Shown here: piece after piece, positions 1 through 7,093 of the stretch
How the letters are laid out: each line of letters opens with the position of its first letter
How positions within the stretch are numbered: the stretch's first letter is position 1
The notes under the pieces: generated by a model
Database searches by the model: none
The model's input: the letters and a program-made list of their open reading frames with translations, nothing else
What the model was told of the DNA's origin: nothing
Made by a program: the position numbers and the translations under genes
Origin: a virus
Taxonomy: Duplodnaviria; Heunggongvirae; Uroviricota; Caudoviricetes
DNA: 7,093 nt
Virus record (IMG/VR): IMGVR_UViG_2563366937_000008
Strand: one strand, 5' to 3'

Positions 1-147
1 CACACCCTGCACCCATTCATGCAAAATCAACGTGTCCCCGCGCTCATAATTACGATCTTTTTTCCGAAACTCTGCGCGTTTCTTTCCTTCCAGTACAAGG
101 TCGAAATATTTTGCGTGCAGCTTTACCTCGTGAATTTTTGCCATCAT
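1..147 (-). CDS. N-terminal fragment of a small protein immediately downstream of A, possibly ASCH/PUA-like; runs off the window edge
   Basis: My own translation of the minus strand from the ATG at 147..145 (or 144..142) gives MMAKIHEVKLHAKYFDLVLEGKKRAEFRKKDRNYERGDTLILHEWVQGV with no stop before position 1. GGAG sits 5 nt upstream of the ATG, and the start overlaps the A stop codon (ACATGATGG). The pattern hydrophobic-x-x-L-x-G-K-K-x-x-E-x-R ... G-D-x-L resembles ASCH-type small domains; this assignment is tentative. It is absent from the ORF track because no stop lies in the window. Confidence 0.45.
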   Translation of the reverse strand, partial: MMAKIHEVKLHAKYFDLVLEGKKRAEFRKKDRNYERGDTLILHEWVQGV

Positions 148-2429
148 GTCCACTCCATTACTGTTGAGAATCCCGGCCACTCATCAGCGACCGGATACGT
201 GAATTTTTTCCCGTCATAATTTACGGTTGCTCCACGCGCCAGCGCCTCAAGTTCCCATCGCTGAGGCCTGATACCGTTCTGAGCAAGGTCAACGCGGATA
301 CGGGTGATCTGCAATCGTTCAGACCTGGTCAGTCTGGCAGATGGTGCAATTTCATGCGGTTTTAACGGGCTTCCGTTTCTTTGCTGACGGTTTGGCGTTC
401 TCATGTCGTATTTTAATGCGCCCCTGAGCGCCCTCACGACCTCCGGTTCATTCCATTCAATAACACCGTCATCAACCAGATTAAGCACTGCTGCGGCGTG
501 CTCAGAAGGTGTGGGAGCCGGTAACGAAGTATCACCACCGGTGAGCTTTCCACAGTTATTGACAGGACTCCGAGGCGCGGCGATGCCGCTTTTTAAAGTC
601 AGAGGCTCAACGACCGGAACTTTCGGCACAATGCGCCAGTCCGTCGTTCTGGTGATATGAATATGACGCGCGCCGAGATGCGGCGCGTAAATGCCGACCA
701 CTCTCTCGACTTCTTCCTCGTACTCGTTAACTTCATCCGACGGACTACGGGCGACCCTGACAGTCTGACAATCGCGCGGGACATTTGCCCCACCCTGCGC
801 GCTGATATACAACGCAAAATCACCACTGTCTGCGGCGGCGCGTGCAGCCTCGACGCGCTCGTCAAACTCATCAGCAATGCTGACGCCGCGAGGCAATTTG
901 CGTAGTTCACGGTAAGCCCCCATTGTCGGCAGACCAACCGTTTTAAATTGTGGGATGCGCCACGTTGACGCCCATGCGGTAACAGCCGCAGCAGTGTCTT
1001 TCAGCGGTCTGCCGGTATCGTTATCGAGCTGACCATCCAGTGCATAGCCATCGATGTTTTTTGAGATGTATTTCGCGATATACCCCGCAGCACCGCCCTG
1101 GTTAAGGTGTTTTGCCTGAAAACGGTTTCGCGCGGCTCCTCTTTCGTCGCCATCCTCTTTGAGCGCATAGCGACGCATGATTTCGATAATCTGGTTACGC
1201 TGGCGTGGATTACAAAAAAGCATCATATGCCAGTGCGGCGTTCCGTCGTGGTGTGGCTCGACGACACGCAAACCGTAGACCTGTAAATCATTATCTTTGA
1301 ATGCCGTGCGCATCAGGCTCCAGATATGGCAGAGATAACGCTGCGCATCCTTTGGATTAAATGCCTCATCGTTCCAGCCGTGATTTAGCTGGACGGTTTT
1401 ACTTTCGCCTTTTCCGACCTGACGTGTCGGGTGATACTTTGAAGGCGCGGTAAGCGTGATAAACATCCCCACATCACCCTCTGCGGCGGCGTAACGCTCA
1501 ATACCGGCAATGGTGTTCATCAGCTCCATCCGGCGAATTTCAGGATTAGAAATACTGCCCATCACCTTACTGATAAGGTCGATGCGCTCGCCGGTTTCCC
1601 TGTTTTCAAGGTCACACGATTTAAGAAATTCCAGATTTGCCTGGCGGCGTGCACGCACATCACGAATGGCATGTTTACTGGCATAAGGAGAACGGTCTTT
1701 ATTCACCTCCCCGACAGCAATCAGTAACGCCTCATGCCAGCGCATACGCTGGCCTTTGAGCTGATGAGTCCACCACTCATCGTTAAACAGACGGGCAATG
1801 GCAGAATATGCCTGCCTCGTGGTCATCTGTCCTTTACGGTATTTTTTCCAGTAAAGCGGGGAAATATTGAAAGCACGTGCAGCGCCAGCAACATGACCAT
1901 AGAGGTGAGCCTGCGCCTCATCCGTAAACAGCGATTCTTTTTCGCCATGTGCATCCACCCAGGCATCGCTGAGTTCCTCATACATCATGAAAAGCTGCGA
2001 TGAGATACGGGCGGCAAACTTTTTCAGCTCCTTGTCATTCATTCCCGGCAGGCGCGCATAGTGGTCACGCTCTGCCAGAAACAGCAACGACGCGTCGGTG
2101 TTCATTTCATGGCGCTGATTCACACGCTCAATGCGCGGCCATAAACGACGCTGAAAAGTGGATGTGAGGAAATAAAACCCGTGCACCGGGCTTTTATTGC
2201 GCCGGATGTAGTCATAGCGTGAAGTAAACAGCGAGCGCAAAAAGTAAGGCAGGCGGTTAATCGTGGATAAAACACCTTGCATCTGACGCATCTCGTCACG
2301 TGTAAGGGGTCTTTCGCGCCCGACGGCCTCGCGTGGCGCGTTCCATGCATAAGCACCGGTAAACATCTTACCGGTGCCTGCGGCAAATGCTGACGGAGGG
2401 ACAAAACGCCCGGAGGCTTTAACGGCCAT
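144..2429 (-). CDS. A: Replication initiation protein A, a rolling-circle HUH-type endonuclease (761 aa from the first ATG)
   Basis: Track ORF 144..2471 begins at a TTG (plus-strand caa at 2469..2471). The first in-frame ATG is at 2429..2427 (MAVKASGRF...), giving 761 aa. HUH motif PHWHMML (HWH at nt 1227..1235) and paired tyrosines in YIAKYISK (Tyr codons at 1080..1082 and 1068..1070) are hallmarks of the phiX174 A / P2 A initiator family. Stop TGA at 146..144. Confidence 0.9.
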   Translation of the reverse strand: MAVKASGRFVPPSAFAAGTGKMFTGAYAWNAPREAVGRERPLTRDEMRQMQGVLSTINRLPYFLRSLFTSRYDYIRRNKSPVHGFYFLTSTFQRRLWPRIERVNQRHEMNTDASLLFLAERDHYARLPGMNDKELKKFAARISSQLFMMYEELSDAWVDAHGEKESLFTDEAQAHLYGHVAGAARAFNISPLYWKKYRKGQMTTRQAYSAIARLFNDEWWTHQLKGQRMRWHEALLIAVGEVNKDRSPYASKHAIRDVRARRQANLEFLKSCDLENRETGERIDLISKVMGSISNPEIRRMELMNTIAGIERYAAAEGDVGMFITLTAPSKYHPTRQVGKGESKTVQLNHGWNDEAFNPKDAQRYLCHIWSLMRTAFKDNDLQVYGLRVVEPHHDGTPHWHMMLFCNPRQRNQIIEIMRRYALKEDGDERGAARNRFQAKHLNQGGAAGYIAKYISKNIDGYALDGQLDNDTGRPLKDTAAAVTAWASTWRIPQFKTVGLPTMGAYRELRKLPRGVSIADEFDERVEAARAAADSGDFALYISAQGGANVPRDCQTVRVARSPSDEVNEYEEEVERVVGIYAPHLGARHIHITRTTDWRIVPKVPVVEPLTLKSGIAAPRSPVNNCGKLTGGDTSLPAPTPSEHAAAVLNLVDDGVIEWNEPEVVRALRGALKYDMRTPNRQQRNGSPLKPHEIAPSARLTRSERLQITRIRVDLAQNGIRPQRWELEALARGATVNYDGKKFTYPVADEWPGFSTVMEWT

Positions 2430-2694
2430 ATGAGCCAAAAGCCTCTGAACAACGCTTGCTGAGTTGCTCAACCTGCACGTTTAAATCAGCAAAAGACTTT
2501 GCGCTTCCGGTCAGAATATCGTGATGCATCAGGCCTGAAACGAGCTGGCTTAATTTCGGGTAATAACCAACCACCGCCAGCCATTCCTGACCGGCGTTTT
2601 TACCGCTTTCCGCTCTCTTTTTCTCGTGGAGAATAAACTGAAAGCTGTCACTGGTAACGACATAACGTTCGCCAATTTCAATACGAATACTCAT
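2419..2694 (-). CDS. Hypothetical small protein (91 aa), last small ORF before A
   Basis: ATG at 2694..2692 with GGAGA about 6 nt upstream. The start overlaps the upstream ORF stop (ATGA). Its 3' end overlaps the A start region by 11 nt. No recognisable motif. Confidence 0.6.
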   Translation of the reverse strand: MSIRIEIGERYVVTSDSFQFILHEKKRAESGKNAGQEWLAVVGYYPKLSQLVSGLMHHDILTGSAKSFADLNVQVEQLSKRCSEAFGSYGR

Positions 2695-2915
2695 GCCGTT
2701 CTCCGGTAATGTTTGTTTTTTGCTTCAAAGACTGACTGACAGGAAACACAACGCGTGGCTGACGGGTAAGCCGCACGACGGGCAGCAGGTATTGGCGCGT
2801 CACACTCTTCGCAAACCAGCGCAGAAGCACCGCAATGTTTTACCCTTGCCGCGTTAATCTGGCGCTCCAGTAATTCAGCCTGTTGTTCCTGAATAAAATC
2901 TACGTTGTCCGGCAT
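2691..2915 (-). CDS. TraR/DksA-family C4 zinc-finger protein (74 aa)
   Basis: Two CxxC pairs 17 residues apart (C35-E-E-C38 and C56-V-S-C59) preceded by an acidic N-terminal helix (DNVDFIQEQQAELLERQ), the typical phage TraR-like layout. ATG at 2915..2913 with AAGGA upstream; start overlaps the upstream ORF stop (TAATG). Confidence 0.75.
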   Translation of the reverse strand: MPDNVDFIQEQQAELLERQINAARVKHCGASALVCEECDAPIPAARRAAYPSATRCVSCQSVFEAKNKHYRRTA

Positions 2916-3217
2916 TACCAGTTCCTTTTGTCGTTCAGTTTTTTAAATTCATCAGCGCAATAGCTGGCGATTTCTGTCGTTAATTTCGTCAGTTCATCCA
3001 CGGAGGAAATTTGCTTGTGAAATACAGCGCGTTTAACAAGTAAATTGACCACATCAGACAGGAGGTTTAATTCACTCTGATAAATCGCGATAACAGATTC
3101 AGTTATTTCGCGTTTTTCTTTATCAAGACCAAGTTGAATAAGAGACAAATCGCCATTTTTCATAACGGCGATTTTTAAGGCGTTATTCAGTAATACAACT
3201 GCACGAGAACAGAACAT
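2915..3217 (-). CDS. Hypothetical acidic helical protein (100 aa from the ATG at 3217), AT-rich
   Basis: Track ORF 2915..3220 starts at a TTG. The adjacent ATG at 3217..3215 has GGAGG 9 nt upstream and overlaps the upstream stop by 1 nt (TGATG). By manual count the coding sequence is about 37% GC over 2941..3180, against about 55% in a sampled A segment. An alternative internal start at 3163 (82 aa) lacks an SD. Confidence 0.55.
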   Translation of the reverse strand: MFCSRAVVLLNNALKIAVMKNGDLSLIQLGLDKEKREITESVIAIYQSELNLLSDVVNLLVKRAVFHKQISSVDELTKLTTEIASYCADEFKKLNDKRNW

Positions 3218-3441
3218 CAAAGCACCTCCCCGCGAGACAATCCGATATTGTGAAATTTTTCCGACTCCTGACTGAGCAGCTCGACTATCTCCACGCGGGA
3301 TAACTCCGCCTTTGTGATGTGGCGAATCATGGCATCAAGATGAGAAGAAAAGCGCGTCGCAGCGTCGGCCTGTGCTTCGGTTCTGGCCTGTTGCAGCAGT
3401 AATGCGTATATACCGCACTGATTTTCAGAAACTGTATGCAT
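3217..3441 (-). CDS. Hypothetical small protein (74 aa from the ATG at 3441), first ORF downstream of B
   Basis: Track ORF 3217..3474 starts at a TTG with no SD. The in-frame ATG at 3441..3439 is preceded by GGAGA with 5-6 nt spacing (MHTVSENQ...). Stop TGA at 3219..3217. Confidence 0.5.
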
Positions 3442-3504
3442 AACTTTCTCCAGGCAAAAAGAAGCCCCGCACAATTAAGTGCGTTAAAAACTCTGGTTAA
3501 TTAC

Positions 3505-4005
3505 TTAATGCAGATATTGCTCCGGTTTTACCGACGTCAGAATTGTCGGTGCATACTCAAACAGACTGAATAATTCACGTAATGCACGGAATAAAGCATC
3601 ACGCCAGTAACATGACTCTTCATTAATTCGCCAGTATGGCTGGTTGAATTCTTTTTCAGTCAATCCGGCATGCATAAATAAAGTACGACGCTGACTGACT
3701 GTTAAAAAACTAATATATGCATACTCACTTGCGCCAACCTGACGGCGTTTTGAGAATGCACCACGCAATTCATCAATTGCACATACCAGTCGTTCACGTT
3801 CGACGTCGTTCATTTCTTCAAAACACATCGTTGCGTGACGCTGTTTTAACTGAGCATGGAAGCAAACCGTTAACCGTTCGCGCTCCATCATCTGATTATA
3901 ATAATCACATGTATCCTGCCAGCGAGGAACGGCAAGATGCTTACCAATTATCCGGCGCATAGCTGCTGGCTGTTTTTCAACGAGATTGAGCGTCATCACT
4001 GTCAT
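3505..4005 (-). CDS. B: Replication protein B (166 aa), P2 B-like
   Basis: Track ORF 3505..4011 is 168 aa. The ATG at 4005..4003 (MTVMTLNL...) has GGAGG 8 nt upstream and gives 166 aa, the size I recall for P2 B. It sits between cox and A in the leftward early operon. Start overlaps the upstream small ORF stop (ATGA). Confidence 0.7.
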   Translation of the reverse strand: MTVMTLNLVEKQPAAMRRIIGKHLAVPRWQDTCDYYNQMMERERLTVCFHAQLKQRHATMCFEEMNDVERERLVCAIDELRGAFSKRRQVGASEYAYISFLTVSQRRTLFMHAGLTEKEFNQPYWRINEESCYWRDALFRALRELFSLFEYAPTILTSVKPEQYLH

Positions 4006-4172
4006 TTCCATACCCTCCGGCTTTTCAGAAAGGTCAGAGCCTTTTTTAACGGACTCTGTTTTTTGGTGCGGATAATGATTCCCTTACGCCCCTTACCGTG
4101 GGTGATGGTGAAGTCAATCGCCCTGGGGCTTTCGTTACGCAGTAACTGAGCAATACAACGAGGCTCATTCAT
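4002..4172 (-). CDS. Small basic protein (56 aa) between cox and B
   Basis: Track ORF 4002..4196 starts at a GTG inside cox. The ATG at 4172..4170 has a strong SD (AAGGAG, 6-nt spacer) that begins right at the cox stop. Product MNEPRCIAQLLRNESPRAIDFTITHGKGRKGIIIRTKKQSPLKKALTFLKSRRVWK is very K/R-rich at the C-terminus. Confidence 0.45.
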   Translation of the reverse strand: MNEPRCIAQLLRNESPRAIDFTITHGKGRKGIIIRTKKQSPLKKALTFLKSRRVWK

Positions 4173-4182
4173 ACGGTTCTCC

Positions 4183-4458
4183 TTAACGTGGTTCACCGAG
4201 ACCTAACCACATCAACCAGCCGTCACGAATCTCTTTAGGGCGGCTTTCATAAGCCAGTTTTAGTCCGTTATTCCATGCCGGAAGGTATACCCAATATTCA
4301 CCTGCACGACCTGAAGCTGATTGTGGATCGGTCATATCAATTACAGGCAGCTTTCCTTTATCGATCATCCGACGAACCGCTCCTGTCGATTTTCCTATTA
4401 GTTTTGCGAACTCCTGATAAGGAATCGCATCAGTCATGAGTGTTACTTGCTTGCTCAT
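4183..4458 (-). CDS. cox: Cox-like protein (91 aa): repressor of Pc and excision directionality factor in P2
   Basis: ATG at 4458..4456, stop TAA at 4185..4183. First gene downstream of the leftward Pe promoter and divergent from C. Contains an HTH-like segment (YQEFAKLIGKSTGAVRRMIDKGKLPVI). Size and N-terminal sequence match my memory of P2 Cox. Confidence 0.85.
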   Translation of the reverse strand: MSKQVTLMTDAIPYQEFAKLIGKSTGAVRRMIDKGKLPVIDMTDPQSASGRAGEYWVYLPAWNNGLKLAYESRPKEIRDGWLMWLGLGEPR

Positions 4459-4539
4459 GTCGTCCTCTAGCCCTCATGAATTGCGTTTAATGTCTTATAA
4501 TGCCTTTTAGTGCCCACATCCAAGCACTAAACAATCTAC

Positions 4540-4569
4540 ATCTAAACTAAATACTATTGAGATCTAAAC
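4540..4569. promoter_or_regulatory. Operator: two 8-bp direct-repeat half-sites (GTTTAGAT on the minus strand) spaced 22 bp, flanking the Pe -10
   Basis: Plus-strand atctaaac at 4540..4547 and 4562..4569; a partial third copy (GTAGAT) lies at 4534..4539. Direct repeats flanking the -10 of Pe are the described binding architecture of P2 C repressor. Confidence 0.6.
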
Positions 4570-4579
4570 ACCATGTCAA
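4551..4579 (-). promoter_or_regulatory. Early promoter Pe (leftward, drives cox-B-A operon)
   Basis: Minus-strand TTGACA (4579..4574), a 17-nt spacer, then TAGTAT (4556..4551). The -35 overlaps the C start codon. Transcription is convergent with the C transcript, as in the P2 face-to-face Pe/Pc arrangement. Confidence 0.7.
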
Positions 4580-4872
4580 ACACGATAAGCGAGAAGATAG
4601 TCTTAATGCGAAAATCAGAGTATTTGAGCAGACAACAACTTGCTGATTTAACAGGGGTTCCGTATGGCACGCTGAGTTACTATGAAAGTGGTCGTTCAAC
4701 ACCTCCAACAGATGTCATGATGAACATCCTGCAGACCCCACAATTCACCAAATACACTTTATGGTTCATGACCAATCAGATCGCTCCTGAGTCCGGGCAA
4801 ATTGCGCCCGCTCTCGCACACTTTGGGCAAAACGAAACAACGTCGCCCCACTCCGGTCAAAAGACTGGTTAA
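4573..4872 (+). CDS. C: Immunity repressor C (99 aa)
   Basis: ATG at 4573, stop TAA at 4870..4872. HTH-like segment LSRQQLADLTGVPYGTLSYYESG. Located between the switch region and int, on the same strand as int. Size and sequence match my memory of P2 C. Confidence 0.85.
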   Translation: MSNTISEKIVLMRKSEYLSRQQLADLTGVPYGTLSYYESGRSTPPTDVMMNILQTPQFTKYTLWFMTNQIAPESGQIAPALAHFGQNETTSPHSGQKTG

Positions 4873-4987
4873 CAATTCATCGTGAATATATTCATCACAA
4901 GTGCCTACTATTGGTGGCTAAATTTCAGCCACCACGAAAAAAGCGATTAGTAGTCGCAAAAAAACACACCACTCGGAGGGTTTTCTG

Positions 4988-6001
4988 ATGGCAATCAAAA
5001 AACTCGATGATGGTCGATATGAAGTGGACATCCGCCCTACTGGACGTAATGGAAAACGCATCCGTAGGAAGTTTGATAAGAAAAGCGAAGCTGTCGCTTT
5101 CGAGAAATACACGTTGTACAACCACCACAATAAAGAATGGCTATCAAAACCAACAGACAAGCGACGTCTGTCGGAGCTGACACAGATCTGGTGGGATTTA
5201 AAGGGTAAACACGAAGAGCATGGGAAATCTAATCTTGGAAAAATTGAAATCTTCACAAAAATAACGAATGACCCATGCGCATTTCAAATTACGAAATCGC
5301 TTATCAGCCAGTACTGCGCCACCCGAAGAAGTCAGGGTATTAAACCTTCGAGTATCAATCGTGATTTAACATGTATTAGCGGCATGTTTACAGCCCTGAT
5401 TGAAGCGGAGTTATTCTTTGGTGAGCACCCTATCAGAGGGACAAAAAGGCTTAAGGAGGAAAAACCAGAAACAGGCTATCTAACACAGGAAGAAATTGCC
5501 TTACTGCTTGCAGCACTTGACGGCGACAATAAAAAGATTGCGATTCTTTGCCTGAGTACAGGAGCACGTTGGGGAGAAGCAGCTCGTTTGAAAGCAGAAA
5601 ATATCATCCATAACCGCGTCACGTTTGTTAAAACGAAAACAAACAAACCACGCACCGTCCCGATCTCAGAGGCTGTTGCCAAAATGATCGCGGATAACAA
5701 ACGAGGTTTTTTATTCCCTGATGCTGATTACCCTCGCTTCAGACGAACAATGAAAGCAATAAAACCGGATTTGCCAATGGGGCAAGCCACACATGCACTA
5801 AGGCACAGCTTTGCCACTCATTTCATGATTAATGGAGGAAGTATTATCACGCTACAACGGATACTAGGTCACACGCGGATTGAGCAAACTATGGTTTACG
5901 CTCATTTTGCGCCAGAGTACCTTCAGGACGCCATTTCTCTTAATCCGCTAAGAGGTGGTACTGAGGCCGAGAGTGTCCACACAGTGTCCACAGTAGAGTA
6001 A
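4988..6001 (+). CDS. int: Tyrosine integrase (337 aa), P2 Int-like
   Basis: ATG at 4988 with GGAGG 8 nt upstream. Tyrosine-recombinase motifs are present: Arg in LSTGARWGEAARL, the H-x-x-R box in HALRHSFATH, and the catalytic Tyr in QTMVYAHF. The 3' end lies about 80 bp from the att core. Confidence 0.92.
   Translation: MAIKKLDDGRYEVDIRPTGRNGKRIRRKFDKKSEAVAFEKYTLYNHHNKEWLSKPTDKRRLSELTQIWWDLKGKHEEHGKSNLGKIEIFTKITNDPCAFQITKSLISQYCATRRSQGIKPSSINRDLTCISGMFTALIEAELFFGEHPIRGTKRLKEEKPETGYLTQEEIALLLAALDGDNKKIAILCLSTGARWGEAARLKAENIIHNRVTFVKTKTNKPRTVPISEAVAKMIADNKRGFLFPDADYPRFRRTMKAIKPDLPMGQATHALRHSFATHFMINGGSIITLQRILGHTRIEQTMVYAHFAPEYLQDAISLNPLRGGTEAESVHTVSTVE
5972..5992. repeat. Tandem 10-bp direct repeat AGTGTCCACA x2 (11-bp periodicity) inside the 3' end of int; candidate integrase arm-type binding sites
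   Basis: Perfect copies at 5972..5981 and 5983..5992, both within the int coding sequence (encoding SVHTVSTV). The position about 90-110 bp from the core, direct orientation and helical-turn spacing are typical of arm sites. Assignment is by analogy, not verified. Confidence 0.5.
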
Positions 6002-6080
6002 CGTTTAAGGGCTTTCAGTGGTAATTTATGCCGCTCAAACCCGCATTGTACCGTTGAAAGCCCCTACTGGTGACACCCTA

Positions 6081-6107
6081 AATCTCCCTTACACGGGCTT
6101 ATTTTTT
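6081..6107. repeat. Attachment-site core (prophage/host junction), 27 bp: AATCTCCCTTACACGGGCTTATTTTTT
   Basis: This is the reverse complement of the P2 att core as I recall it (AAAAAATAAGCCCGTGTAAGGGAGATT), and is identical to the 3' terminator end of the enterobacterial sRNA CyaR (RyeE) as I recall it. Sequence to the left is phage (int); sequence to the right leads into host yegS. The body of cyaR is not in this window. Confidence 0.8.
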
Positions 6108-6193
6108 TGTACCACGACTTTCATCCTGTTCTGACACCGCCTTTTCTTTTCTGCTCTACACTATCTACAGACCAATCATAAAGGCATACGACC

Positions 6194-7093
6194 ATGGCAG
6201 ATTTCCCCGCCAGCTTACTGATTCTTAACGGCAAAAGTACTGACAATGAAACATTACGCGAAGCAATTATGCTGCTGCGTGAGGAAGGAATGACTATCCA
6301 TGTGCGGGTTACCTGGGAGAAAGGTGATGCTGCGCGTTTTGTTGAGGAAGCCCGCCAGCTTGGCGTGGCAACGGTGATTGCCGGCGGTGGCGATGGCACT
6401 ATTAATGAAGTCTCCACGGCGTTGATTCAGTGTGAGGGCAATGAAATTCCTGCTTTGGGAATATTGCCGCTAGGTACAGCGAACGATTTTGCCACCAGTG
6501 TGGGTATTCCTGAGGCGCTGGATAAGGCACTTAAACTGGCAATTGCTGGTAACGCTATTGCAATTGATATGGCACAGGTCAACAAACAAACCTGTTTTAT
6601 CAACATGGCAACGGGCGGATTTGGAACACGCATCACCACCGAAACGCCAGAGAAATTAAAAGCCGCGCTGGGTGGCGTCTCTTACATCATTCACGGCTTA
6701 ATGCGCATGGATACGCTGCAACCGGATCGCTGTGAAATCCGTGGTGAAAATTTTCACTGGCAAGGCGATGCGCTGGTTATTGGTATTGGCAACGGGCGTC
6801 AGGCTGGTGGCGGTCAACAACTGTGCCCAAATGCGCTGATCAATGATGGTTTGTTACAACTGCGTATTTTCACCGGCGATGAAATTCTTCCAGCTCTCTT
6901 TTCAACCTTAAAACCTGACGAAGAAAATCCGAATATTATTGAAGGCGCTTCGGCATGGTTCGAAATACAAGCGCCTCATGAAATCACCTTTAATCTTGAT
7001 GGAGAACCGTTAAGCGGGCAACGTTTTCATATCGAAATACTTCCGGCAGCATTGCGTTGCCGGCTACCACCAGATTGCCCGTTATTGCGTTAA
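6194..7093 (+). CDS. yegS: Lipid kinase YegS (299 aa), host gene
   Basis: Complete ORF, ATG at 6194 and TAA at 7091..7093. Carries the GGDGT signature ([13 protein letters not shown]) of the DAGK catalytic domain. The sequence is recognisable as enterobacterial YegS. Confidence 0.9.

Follow-up and report, generated by a model that had tools for sequence, protein, structure and literature searches.

The window, i.e., the whole analysed stretch of 7,093 nt, carries phage DNA up to position 6107 and ends in the host gene yegS. Its positions 1..6107 correspond to bacteriophage P2 (AF063097 24356..30462, minus strand) with 100% identity in a megablast search against phage records. Positions of P2 features were taken from the GenBank annotation of AF063097, where the window coordinate equals the coordinate in L003 minus 1500 (L numbers are our handles for the sequences used). 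The following features are relevant for the junction between the integrase gene int and yegS, with the strand given where it applies.

4476..4501, + strand: Pc promoter (-35 and -10), annotated in AF063097 (L003 5976..6001), source of the C-int transcripts
4573..4872, + strand: C immunity repressor gene, 99-aa ORF with HTH_3 domain, annotated as gpC
4988..6001, + strand: int, tyrosine integrase of 337 aa, ORF with Pfam Int_N and Phage_integrase domains, annotated as Int
5967..5993: Int arm-type binding sites (P' arm), GenBank protein_bind feature
5973..5981 and 5984..5992: direct repeats GTGTCCACA in the P' arm
5991..6064: Cox-binding region of attP, kept at the junction, GenBank protein_bind feature for Cox
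5999..6001, + strand: int stop codon TAA
6009..6063, + strand: stem-loop 3' of int with a 15-bp outer stem and no U-tract, -24.8 kcal/mol, z -4.52
6064..6193, + strand: candidate Rho utilisation zone, untranslated and weakly structured, C 41 and G 16 of 130 nt
6081..6107: 27-bp att core, annotated attP core, matching the cyaR 3' end and the empty-site genome
6099..6108, + strand: orphan T-run TTATTTTTTT left from the CyaR terminator, the stem ahead being reduced to 3 bp (CCC/GGG), -3.5 kcal/mol vs. -15.9 kcal/mol when intact
6108..6193, + strand: native yegS 5' region of 86 bp, identical to the empty-site sequence L082
6125..6135, + strand: conserved motif CCTGTTCTGAC upstream of yegS, recurring in Escherichia, Enterobacter, Lelliottia and Citrobacter spacers
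6156..6162, + strand: putative sigma-S-type -10 element of yegS, CTACACT, 31 nt before the ATG, assigned by conservation
6180..6184, + strand: yegS Shine-Dalgarno sequence AAAGG, assigned from the sequence, 9 nt before the ATG
6194..7093, + strand: yegS, host gene for a lipid kinase of 299 aa, ORF with Pfam DAGK_cat and YegS_C domains

The identity to P2 breaks off precisely at position 6107. The att core of 27 bp (6081..6107) was mapped from the GenBank-annotated P2 attP core (AF063097 24356..24382) and equals the final 27 nt of the sRNA gene cyaR (27/27 to K-12, L001 2675..2701), i.e., the CyaR terminator contributes its loop, 3' stem arm and T-run to the core. The genome L082 (GCA_024733345.1) shows trhP, cyaR and yegS in a row without a phage and is 100% identical to window positions 6081..7093. 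Thus, the homology breakpoints coincide with both core edges (phage until 6107, empty-site host from 6081), and the overlap of phage and host is exactly the 27-bp core. Since an intact cyaR precedes the identical part of L082, the integration site is the 3' end of cyaR, 86 bp upstream of yegS, and the host flank from core to yegS covers 6108..6193 (86 nt). These alignments identify the region as the int-proximal junction of a genuine P2 prophage within a 27-bp core common to the cyaR 3' end. The P2 literature names this junction attL; it is the right end as drawn here. The boundaries stated in the initial annotation agree with these results, i.e., the ORFs at 4988..6001 and 6194..7093 (+ strand) reproduce the int stop at 6001 and the yegS start at 6194, while the stop of the P2 identity and the annotated attP core reproduce the core end at 6107 with its distance of 86 bp to yegS. 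Its location of the junction at cyaR also stands, given that the aligned prophage-free locus of L082 has cyaR at this place, with the core as the CyaR 3' end.

Int-mediated recombination into the 27-bp core of cyaR placed the prophage at the ancestral locus trhP(yegQ)-cyaR-86 bp-yegS. Full-length CyaR (Rfam RF00112) is found with 99 to 102 bits in the comparison loci of K-12, E. whittamii and Escherichia sp. E1V33, and the Rfam model gives no match in the window even at E<=1. The window holds just the last 27 nt of cyaR, which is too short for this model, and the locus was therefore established via the empty-site genomes.

With regard to the host, the YegS protein shows 99% amino acid identity to Escherichia ruysiae, the best match among the species-representative genomes, and 94 to 96% to the E. 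coli representatives. The best-matching E. ruysiae genome also has a P2-like prophage at the identical junction. Judged by yegS, the host resembles E. ruysiae and not E. coli proper. An E. coli host was considered and rejected: the yegS DNA is only 85 to 90% identical in 5418 matching complete E. coli genomes, and the int-yegS junction is absent from all of them. The exact YegS sequence occurs with both allele types, i.e., at phage-occupied as well as phage-free sites. We find a phage-free trhP-cyaR-yegS arrangement with the same YegS protein in L078, L079, L080 and L082, and the int-core-yegS junction matches base for base in the occupied alleles L081, L084 and L085. An unoccupied, continuous site is also present in E. 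whittamii and Escherichia sp. E1V33. In most Enterobacteriaceae genera (loci L006 to L076), the end of cyaR and the yegS ATG downstream are 75 to 95 bp apart, and adjacency of cyaR and yegS is, from the loci compared, the ancestral arrangement.

Contiguity of cyaR and yegS is essentially missing (1 borderline case) in 5426 complete E. coli genomes, and an insertion at this site appears to be fixed in E. coli sensu stricto. As both genes are almost never contiguous there, an int-yegS adjacency is limited to lineages with the ancestral empty site. MG1655 has the order cyaR, PR-X (ogrK and the pseudogene yegZ), yegR on the opposite strand, and yegS, in agreement with the initial annotation, and no yegR is found within the window, also as stated there. 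The K-12 remnant PR-X (ogrK, yegZ) with yegR has its attachment site in common with the window, and K-12 cyaR keeps an intact core. In contrast to the window, int and nearly all of the phage are lost in K-12, the core copy next to yegS carries mutations, and yegR is interposed on the opposite strand. The arrangement of cyaR, core, P arm and ogr at the far prophage end is present in K-12 for its remnant.

A degenerate version of the P2 int 3' end, the Cox region and the att core is located directly upstream of yegS in K-12 (L001 4070..4126) and in E. coli M160133 (L002 3001..3117). Given its position beside yegS, the old prophage footprint spans from cyaR to yegS with yegR inside, i.e., it is wider than the RefSeq feature 'cryptic prophage PR-X' (2167183..2167811). 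The PHROG match of yegR (L001 3490..3807, minus strand; phrog_21109, E 4e-71) was considered as evidence for a phage gene and rejected as such, since the host gene yegS (6194..7093) also has a PHROG family (phrog_8777, E 7e-134). PHROGs evidently includes host genes from over-called prophage ends at this locus, such that PHROG matches are no proof of phage origin.

The initial annotation had claimed that the core carries the T-run of the CyaR terminator while the upstream stem partner is swapped for phage sequence. Both parts are borne out: the 27/27 match to the cyaR end includes the T-run, and the CyaR 5' stem arm CCTGTGT is replaced by the phage sequence ACACCCTA at the junction. The intact CyaR terminator hairpin has a folding energy of -15.9 kcal/mol in K-12 and -16.2 kcal/mol in E. 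whittamii, compared to -3.5 kcal/mol for the junction (6066..6110), where a 3-bp CCC/GGG stem alone remains before the T-run. To define an intrinsic terminator, we used a G+C-rich hairpin 0 to 2 nt before a U-tract. On the + strand of 4400..6500, including the interval from C to int, the pattern scan finds no such arrangement, while it detects both positive controls, the CyaR terminator of L082 with 11 pairs and, in free P2, the int-strand ogr terminator. A custom scan for a hairpin plus T-tract does not go beyond -3.1 to -4.5 kcal/mol at the junction, compared to -12.6 and -15 to -18 kcal/mol for the controls. That is, no intrinsic terminator is located between int and yegS, and the respective claim of the initial annotation holds in both scans. 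This is to be qualified in one respect: a very stable hairpin is present at 6009..6063, but it has no U-tract of its own and is thus not a canonical terminator.

One further terminator fold was discarded. Here, AAGCCC (6058..6063) pairs with GGGCUU (6096..6101) across a 32-nt loop with -7.4 to -11 kcal/mol, which matches shuffled sequences (z about 0). This fold also competes with the much stronger and earlier-transcribed hairpin at 6009..6063.

In free P2, the int strand carries the bidirectional-looking ogr/F-operon terminator ~70 nt past the core, with a hairpin of -15 to -20 kcal/mol and CTGTTTG as its tail. Integration would carry this int-strand terminator of P2 to the other prophage end. 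The intact CyaR terminator would also stay at the far prophage end, and the loop, 3' arm and T-run present here are joined to non-pairing phage DNA. Elements that target sRNA/tRNA 3' ends routinely leave such an orphaned half-terminator on one side, which is already known, and the junction illustrates how phages in sRNA/tRNA terminator hairpins rebuild the terminator at one end and leave an orphan U-tract at the other. The CyaR terminator is leaky, with 41% read-through in a double-terminator reporter construct (PMC9765468). Since yegS lies ~86 bp behind this leaky terminator at the empty site, transcriptional input from upstream is nothing new for yegS.

The hairpin at 6009..6063 begins 8 nt past the int stop, ends 38 nt ahead of the orphan T-run, and is not reached in stability by any shuffled sequence (0/200). 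Each of its arms is a cox-box-like TGAAAGCCC, and the two copies are opposed to each other within the footprinted Cox site. The cox-box consensus is TTAAAG/CNCA, and boxes are found in both orientations at attP (PMC3936717). Because the arms fit this consensus within the Cox site, the palindrome is explained at the DNA level, and we infer that the hairpin is mostly a by-product of opposed Cox boxes at the RNA level. The post-int hairpin is kept in Klebsiella phages of the genus Reipivirus, another genus of Peduoviridae, at ~75% overall identity. Both G.U pairs of the P2 hairpin are Watson-Crick pairs there (A-U and C-G), which provides, from two informative positions, a weak hint at RNA-level selection. 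In one of these sequences (L086, Klebsiella phage ST16-OXA48phi5.4, ~468..526), the stem arms hardly differ from P2, and the loop varies.

Another hairpin is found in the C-int spacer (4912..4934). It is G+C-rich with 8 bp (GGUGGCU-N7-AGCCACC) and followed by an A-run rather than a U-run. None of 200 shuffles folds as well as the 126-nt spacer (z -2.9), and its hairpin may be linked to int translation or mRNA processing.

Beyond the post-int hairpin, the untranslated region 6064..6193 is composed of 31.5% C and 12.3% G, and the C/G ratio ranges from 2 to 3.4 in 78-nt windows across 6030..6200. Untranslated, unstructured RNA with C>G over ~80 nt (rut) is the usual signature of Rho loading. By composition, 6064..6193 could be assigned as such a rut and might load Rho.

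For the promoter of yegS, a sigma-70 consensus scan of 4400..6500 yields no + strand candidate, and the assignment is therefore based on conservation instead of a consensus match. In 56/66 species loci, TACACT precedes the yegS ATG by 29 to 38 nt. As criterion for a sigma-S -10 element, we used CTAYRCT at a fixed distance to the gene together with RpoS-dependent expression; yegS is 112-fold RpoS-dependent in EDL933 according to microarray data (PMC2907692). CTACACT is thereby the putative -10 element of an own sigma-S-type promoter of yegS, while CCTGTTCTGAC is possibly an upstream promoter or regulator site. Both are located within the host flank and thus untouched by integration.

The structural reading of the initial annotation is thus fully supported, whereas the read-through of C-int transcripts into yegS that it suggested is allowed by the sequence; we consider such read-through plausible and likely small. 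It is tempered by four points absent from that annotation, namely the C-rich tract, the promoter-like element of yegS, the leaky CyaR terminator at the empty site and the restriction of the int-yegS adjacency to certain lineages. We infer co-transcription of int from Pc based on the GenBank annotation of P2, in which Pc is the only promoter upstream of C-int, and on Yu et al. 1994, who are said to have found C and int co-transcribed from Pc. In the lysogen, Pc-C-int transcripts would pass position 6001, with no intrinsic terminator on their way to yegS. Once the ribosome has come off at the int stop (6001), the 6009..6063 hairpin would form in the RNA. Next, ~130 nt of C-rich, G-poor untranslated RNA would be exposed, where Rho probably stops part of the transcripts. 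The remaining ones would enter yegS and provide a low, C-autoregulated and RpoS-independent input, which would add to the sigma-S-type promoter of yegS itself (CTACACT, 6156..6162). We hold this explanation as a whole, i.e., a P2/cyaR junction without intrinsic terminator, partial termination by Rho and low read-through atop the own promoter of yegS, with good confidence.

Pc is a weak, C-autoregulated promoter. For this reason, and since yegS keeps its own promoter, the effect on YegS is expected to be small. We see a roughly even chance for detectable int-yegS co-transcripts and a chance well below even for a physiologically meaningful effect on YegS. A literature search returned nothing usable on read-through for the P2 prophage, cyaR or yegS or on RNA-seq of P2 lysogens, and PMC3448106 contains no statement on terminators or cyaR.

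Several other readings of the same region were weighed against this one. The junction could be an assembly chimera or a chance match instead of a real prophage-host boundary, for which the only oddity to be named is the 100% P2 sequence in a non-coli Escherichia. However, the junction is base-for-base identical in the independent assemblies L004, L081, L084 and L085, a recurrence that rules this out, and the breakpoints lie exactly at both edges of the experimentally defined 27-bp core, such that we assign it practically no credence. Read-through might also be prevented altogether, i.e., Rho-dependent termination within the 192-nt untranslated gap would fully insulate yegS, and the missing intrinsic terminator would be inconsequential. 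The 130 nt of weakly structured, C-rich/G-poor RNA point in this direction, in particular since the tract is ribosome-free as it comes after a stop codon; furthermore, Rho preferentially silences untranslated, horizontally acquired transcription. On the other hand, the support is one of composition, the ribosome binding site of yegS at 6180 leaves Rho only a small space, being ~115 nt past the hairpin, and complete Rho termination is rare. We thus regard full insulation as doubtful, though conceivable.

The post-int hairpin, finally, could be a functional element of the int mRNA with little transcription beyond it. It could serve as a 3' stabiliser, as a processing (RNase III) site, or as a non-canonical pause/termination site that sets the int 3' end. 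The fold is very stable (-24.8 kcal/mol, z -4.5) and conserved in Reipivirus, where the A-U and C-G substitutions fit RNA pairing on the int strand only. In addition, P2 int is reportedly subject to post-transcriptional autoregulation that involves the attP region, a finding ascribed to Yu et al. 1994. Nevertheless, the hairpin arms coincide with the opposed cox-box-like TGAAAGCCC in the footprinted Cox site, there is no U-tract, just two substitutions are informative (with a probability of about 1 in 4 by chance), and the hairpin is decayed in the E. coli remnant copies. Such a function is therefore improbable in our view, and we keep to partial read-through past a hairpin that would mainly mirror the Cox boxes.

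One variant extends low read-through to int itself, and we consider it very improbable. Here, integration would act as a 3'-UTR switch for int with less Int in the lysogen, and low yegS transcription coupled to Pc would be a by-product. In the circular phage, the int mRNA would end at the ogr/F-operon terminator beyond attP and be stable. In the prophage, with terminator-free host sequence in place of this terminator, the int message would either be stopped by Rho and keep an unprotected 3' end or run on into yegS. If true, this would bear on the old observation that the P2 prophage expresses int poorly.

The lambda sib element is an RNase III site beyond attP that destabilises the int mRNA in the non-integrated state. 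P2 is similar in that integration alters the sequence 3' of int, i.e., the ogr terminator beyond attP is uncoupled, but differs in that the 6009..6063 hairpin belongs to the int side and remains attached to int in both states. Since the separated P2 element is a terminator and not an RNase III site, the polarity is expected to be opposite to sib, and the 3'-UTR switch of P2 would be its inverse counterpart. Induced lambda lysogens furthermore show escape synthesis of gal/bio via N-antiterminated PL transcripts. As would be the case for int-yegS read-through, phage-promoted transcripts cross the att junction into host genes on the same strand, while the P2 case would rely on unmodified, weak Pc transcription in a stable lysogen.

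Compared to classical P2 integrated at locI of E. coli C, its preferred site at the 3' end of cyaR/ryeE, the phage is identical (100% over 6107 bp), and the 27-bp core, the Int P' arm and Cox boxes beside int, and the neighbourhood trhP(yegQ)-cyaR are shared. In contrast, the host is E. ruysiae-like, and the site was truly empty before integration, such that int directly abuts the promoter region of yegS, whereas in E. coli sensu stricto, cyaR and yegS are separated by other DNA (remnant, yegR).

P2, its attP core and arm sites, the integration beside cyaR/ogrK as well as prophage read-out into host genes are long established. New are only two details, i.e., the E. ruysiae-like host with its truly empty ancestral site and the explicit terminator accounting. 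The main value is that the exact empty and occupied alleles are documented, with the putative yegS promoter retained. If the read-through holds true, low and RpoS-independent expression of the lipid kinase YegS would be expected in a P2 lysogen. Any CRP-dependent input that reaches yegS in non-lysogens by leakage of the CyaR terminator would be lost at the same time, which would make the locus a small case of lysogenic rewiring of a host gene. Neither this case nor the one-sided rebuilding of the terminator alters what is understood about P2, cyaR and yegS.

Among the related prophages, a P2-like one at the same site of a metagenome scaffold (L083) carries 98 bp (9228..9325) in place of window positions 4437..5519. 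This prophage thus has neither the C repressor gene nor the 5' half of int, which makes it a grounded defective element or else an artefact of the assembly. P2-like phages have a variable hotspot for defence genes. At the position of P2 old/tin, L081 (1111..3313) holds a reverse-transcriptase-like gene set and L083 (2130..4848) genes with AAA_23 and MC4 domains, and this cargo is consistent with the known hotspot.
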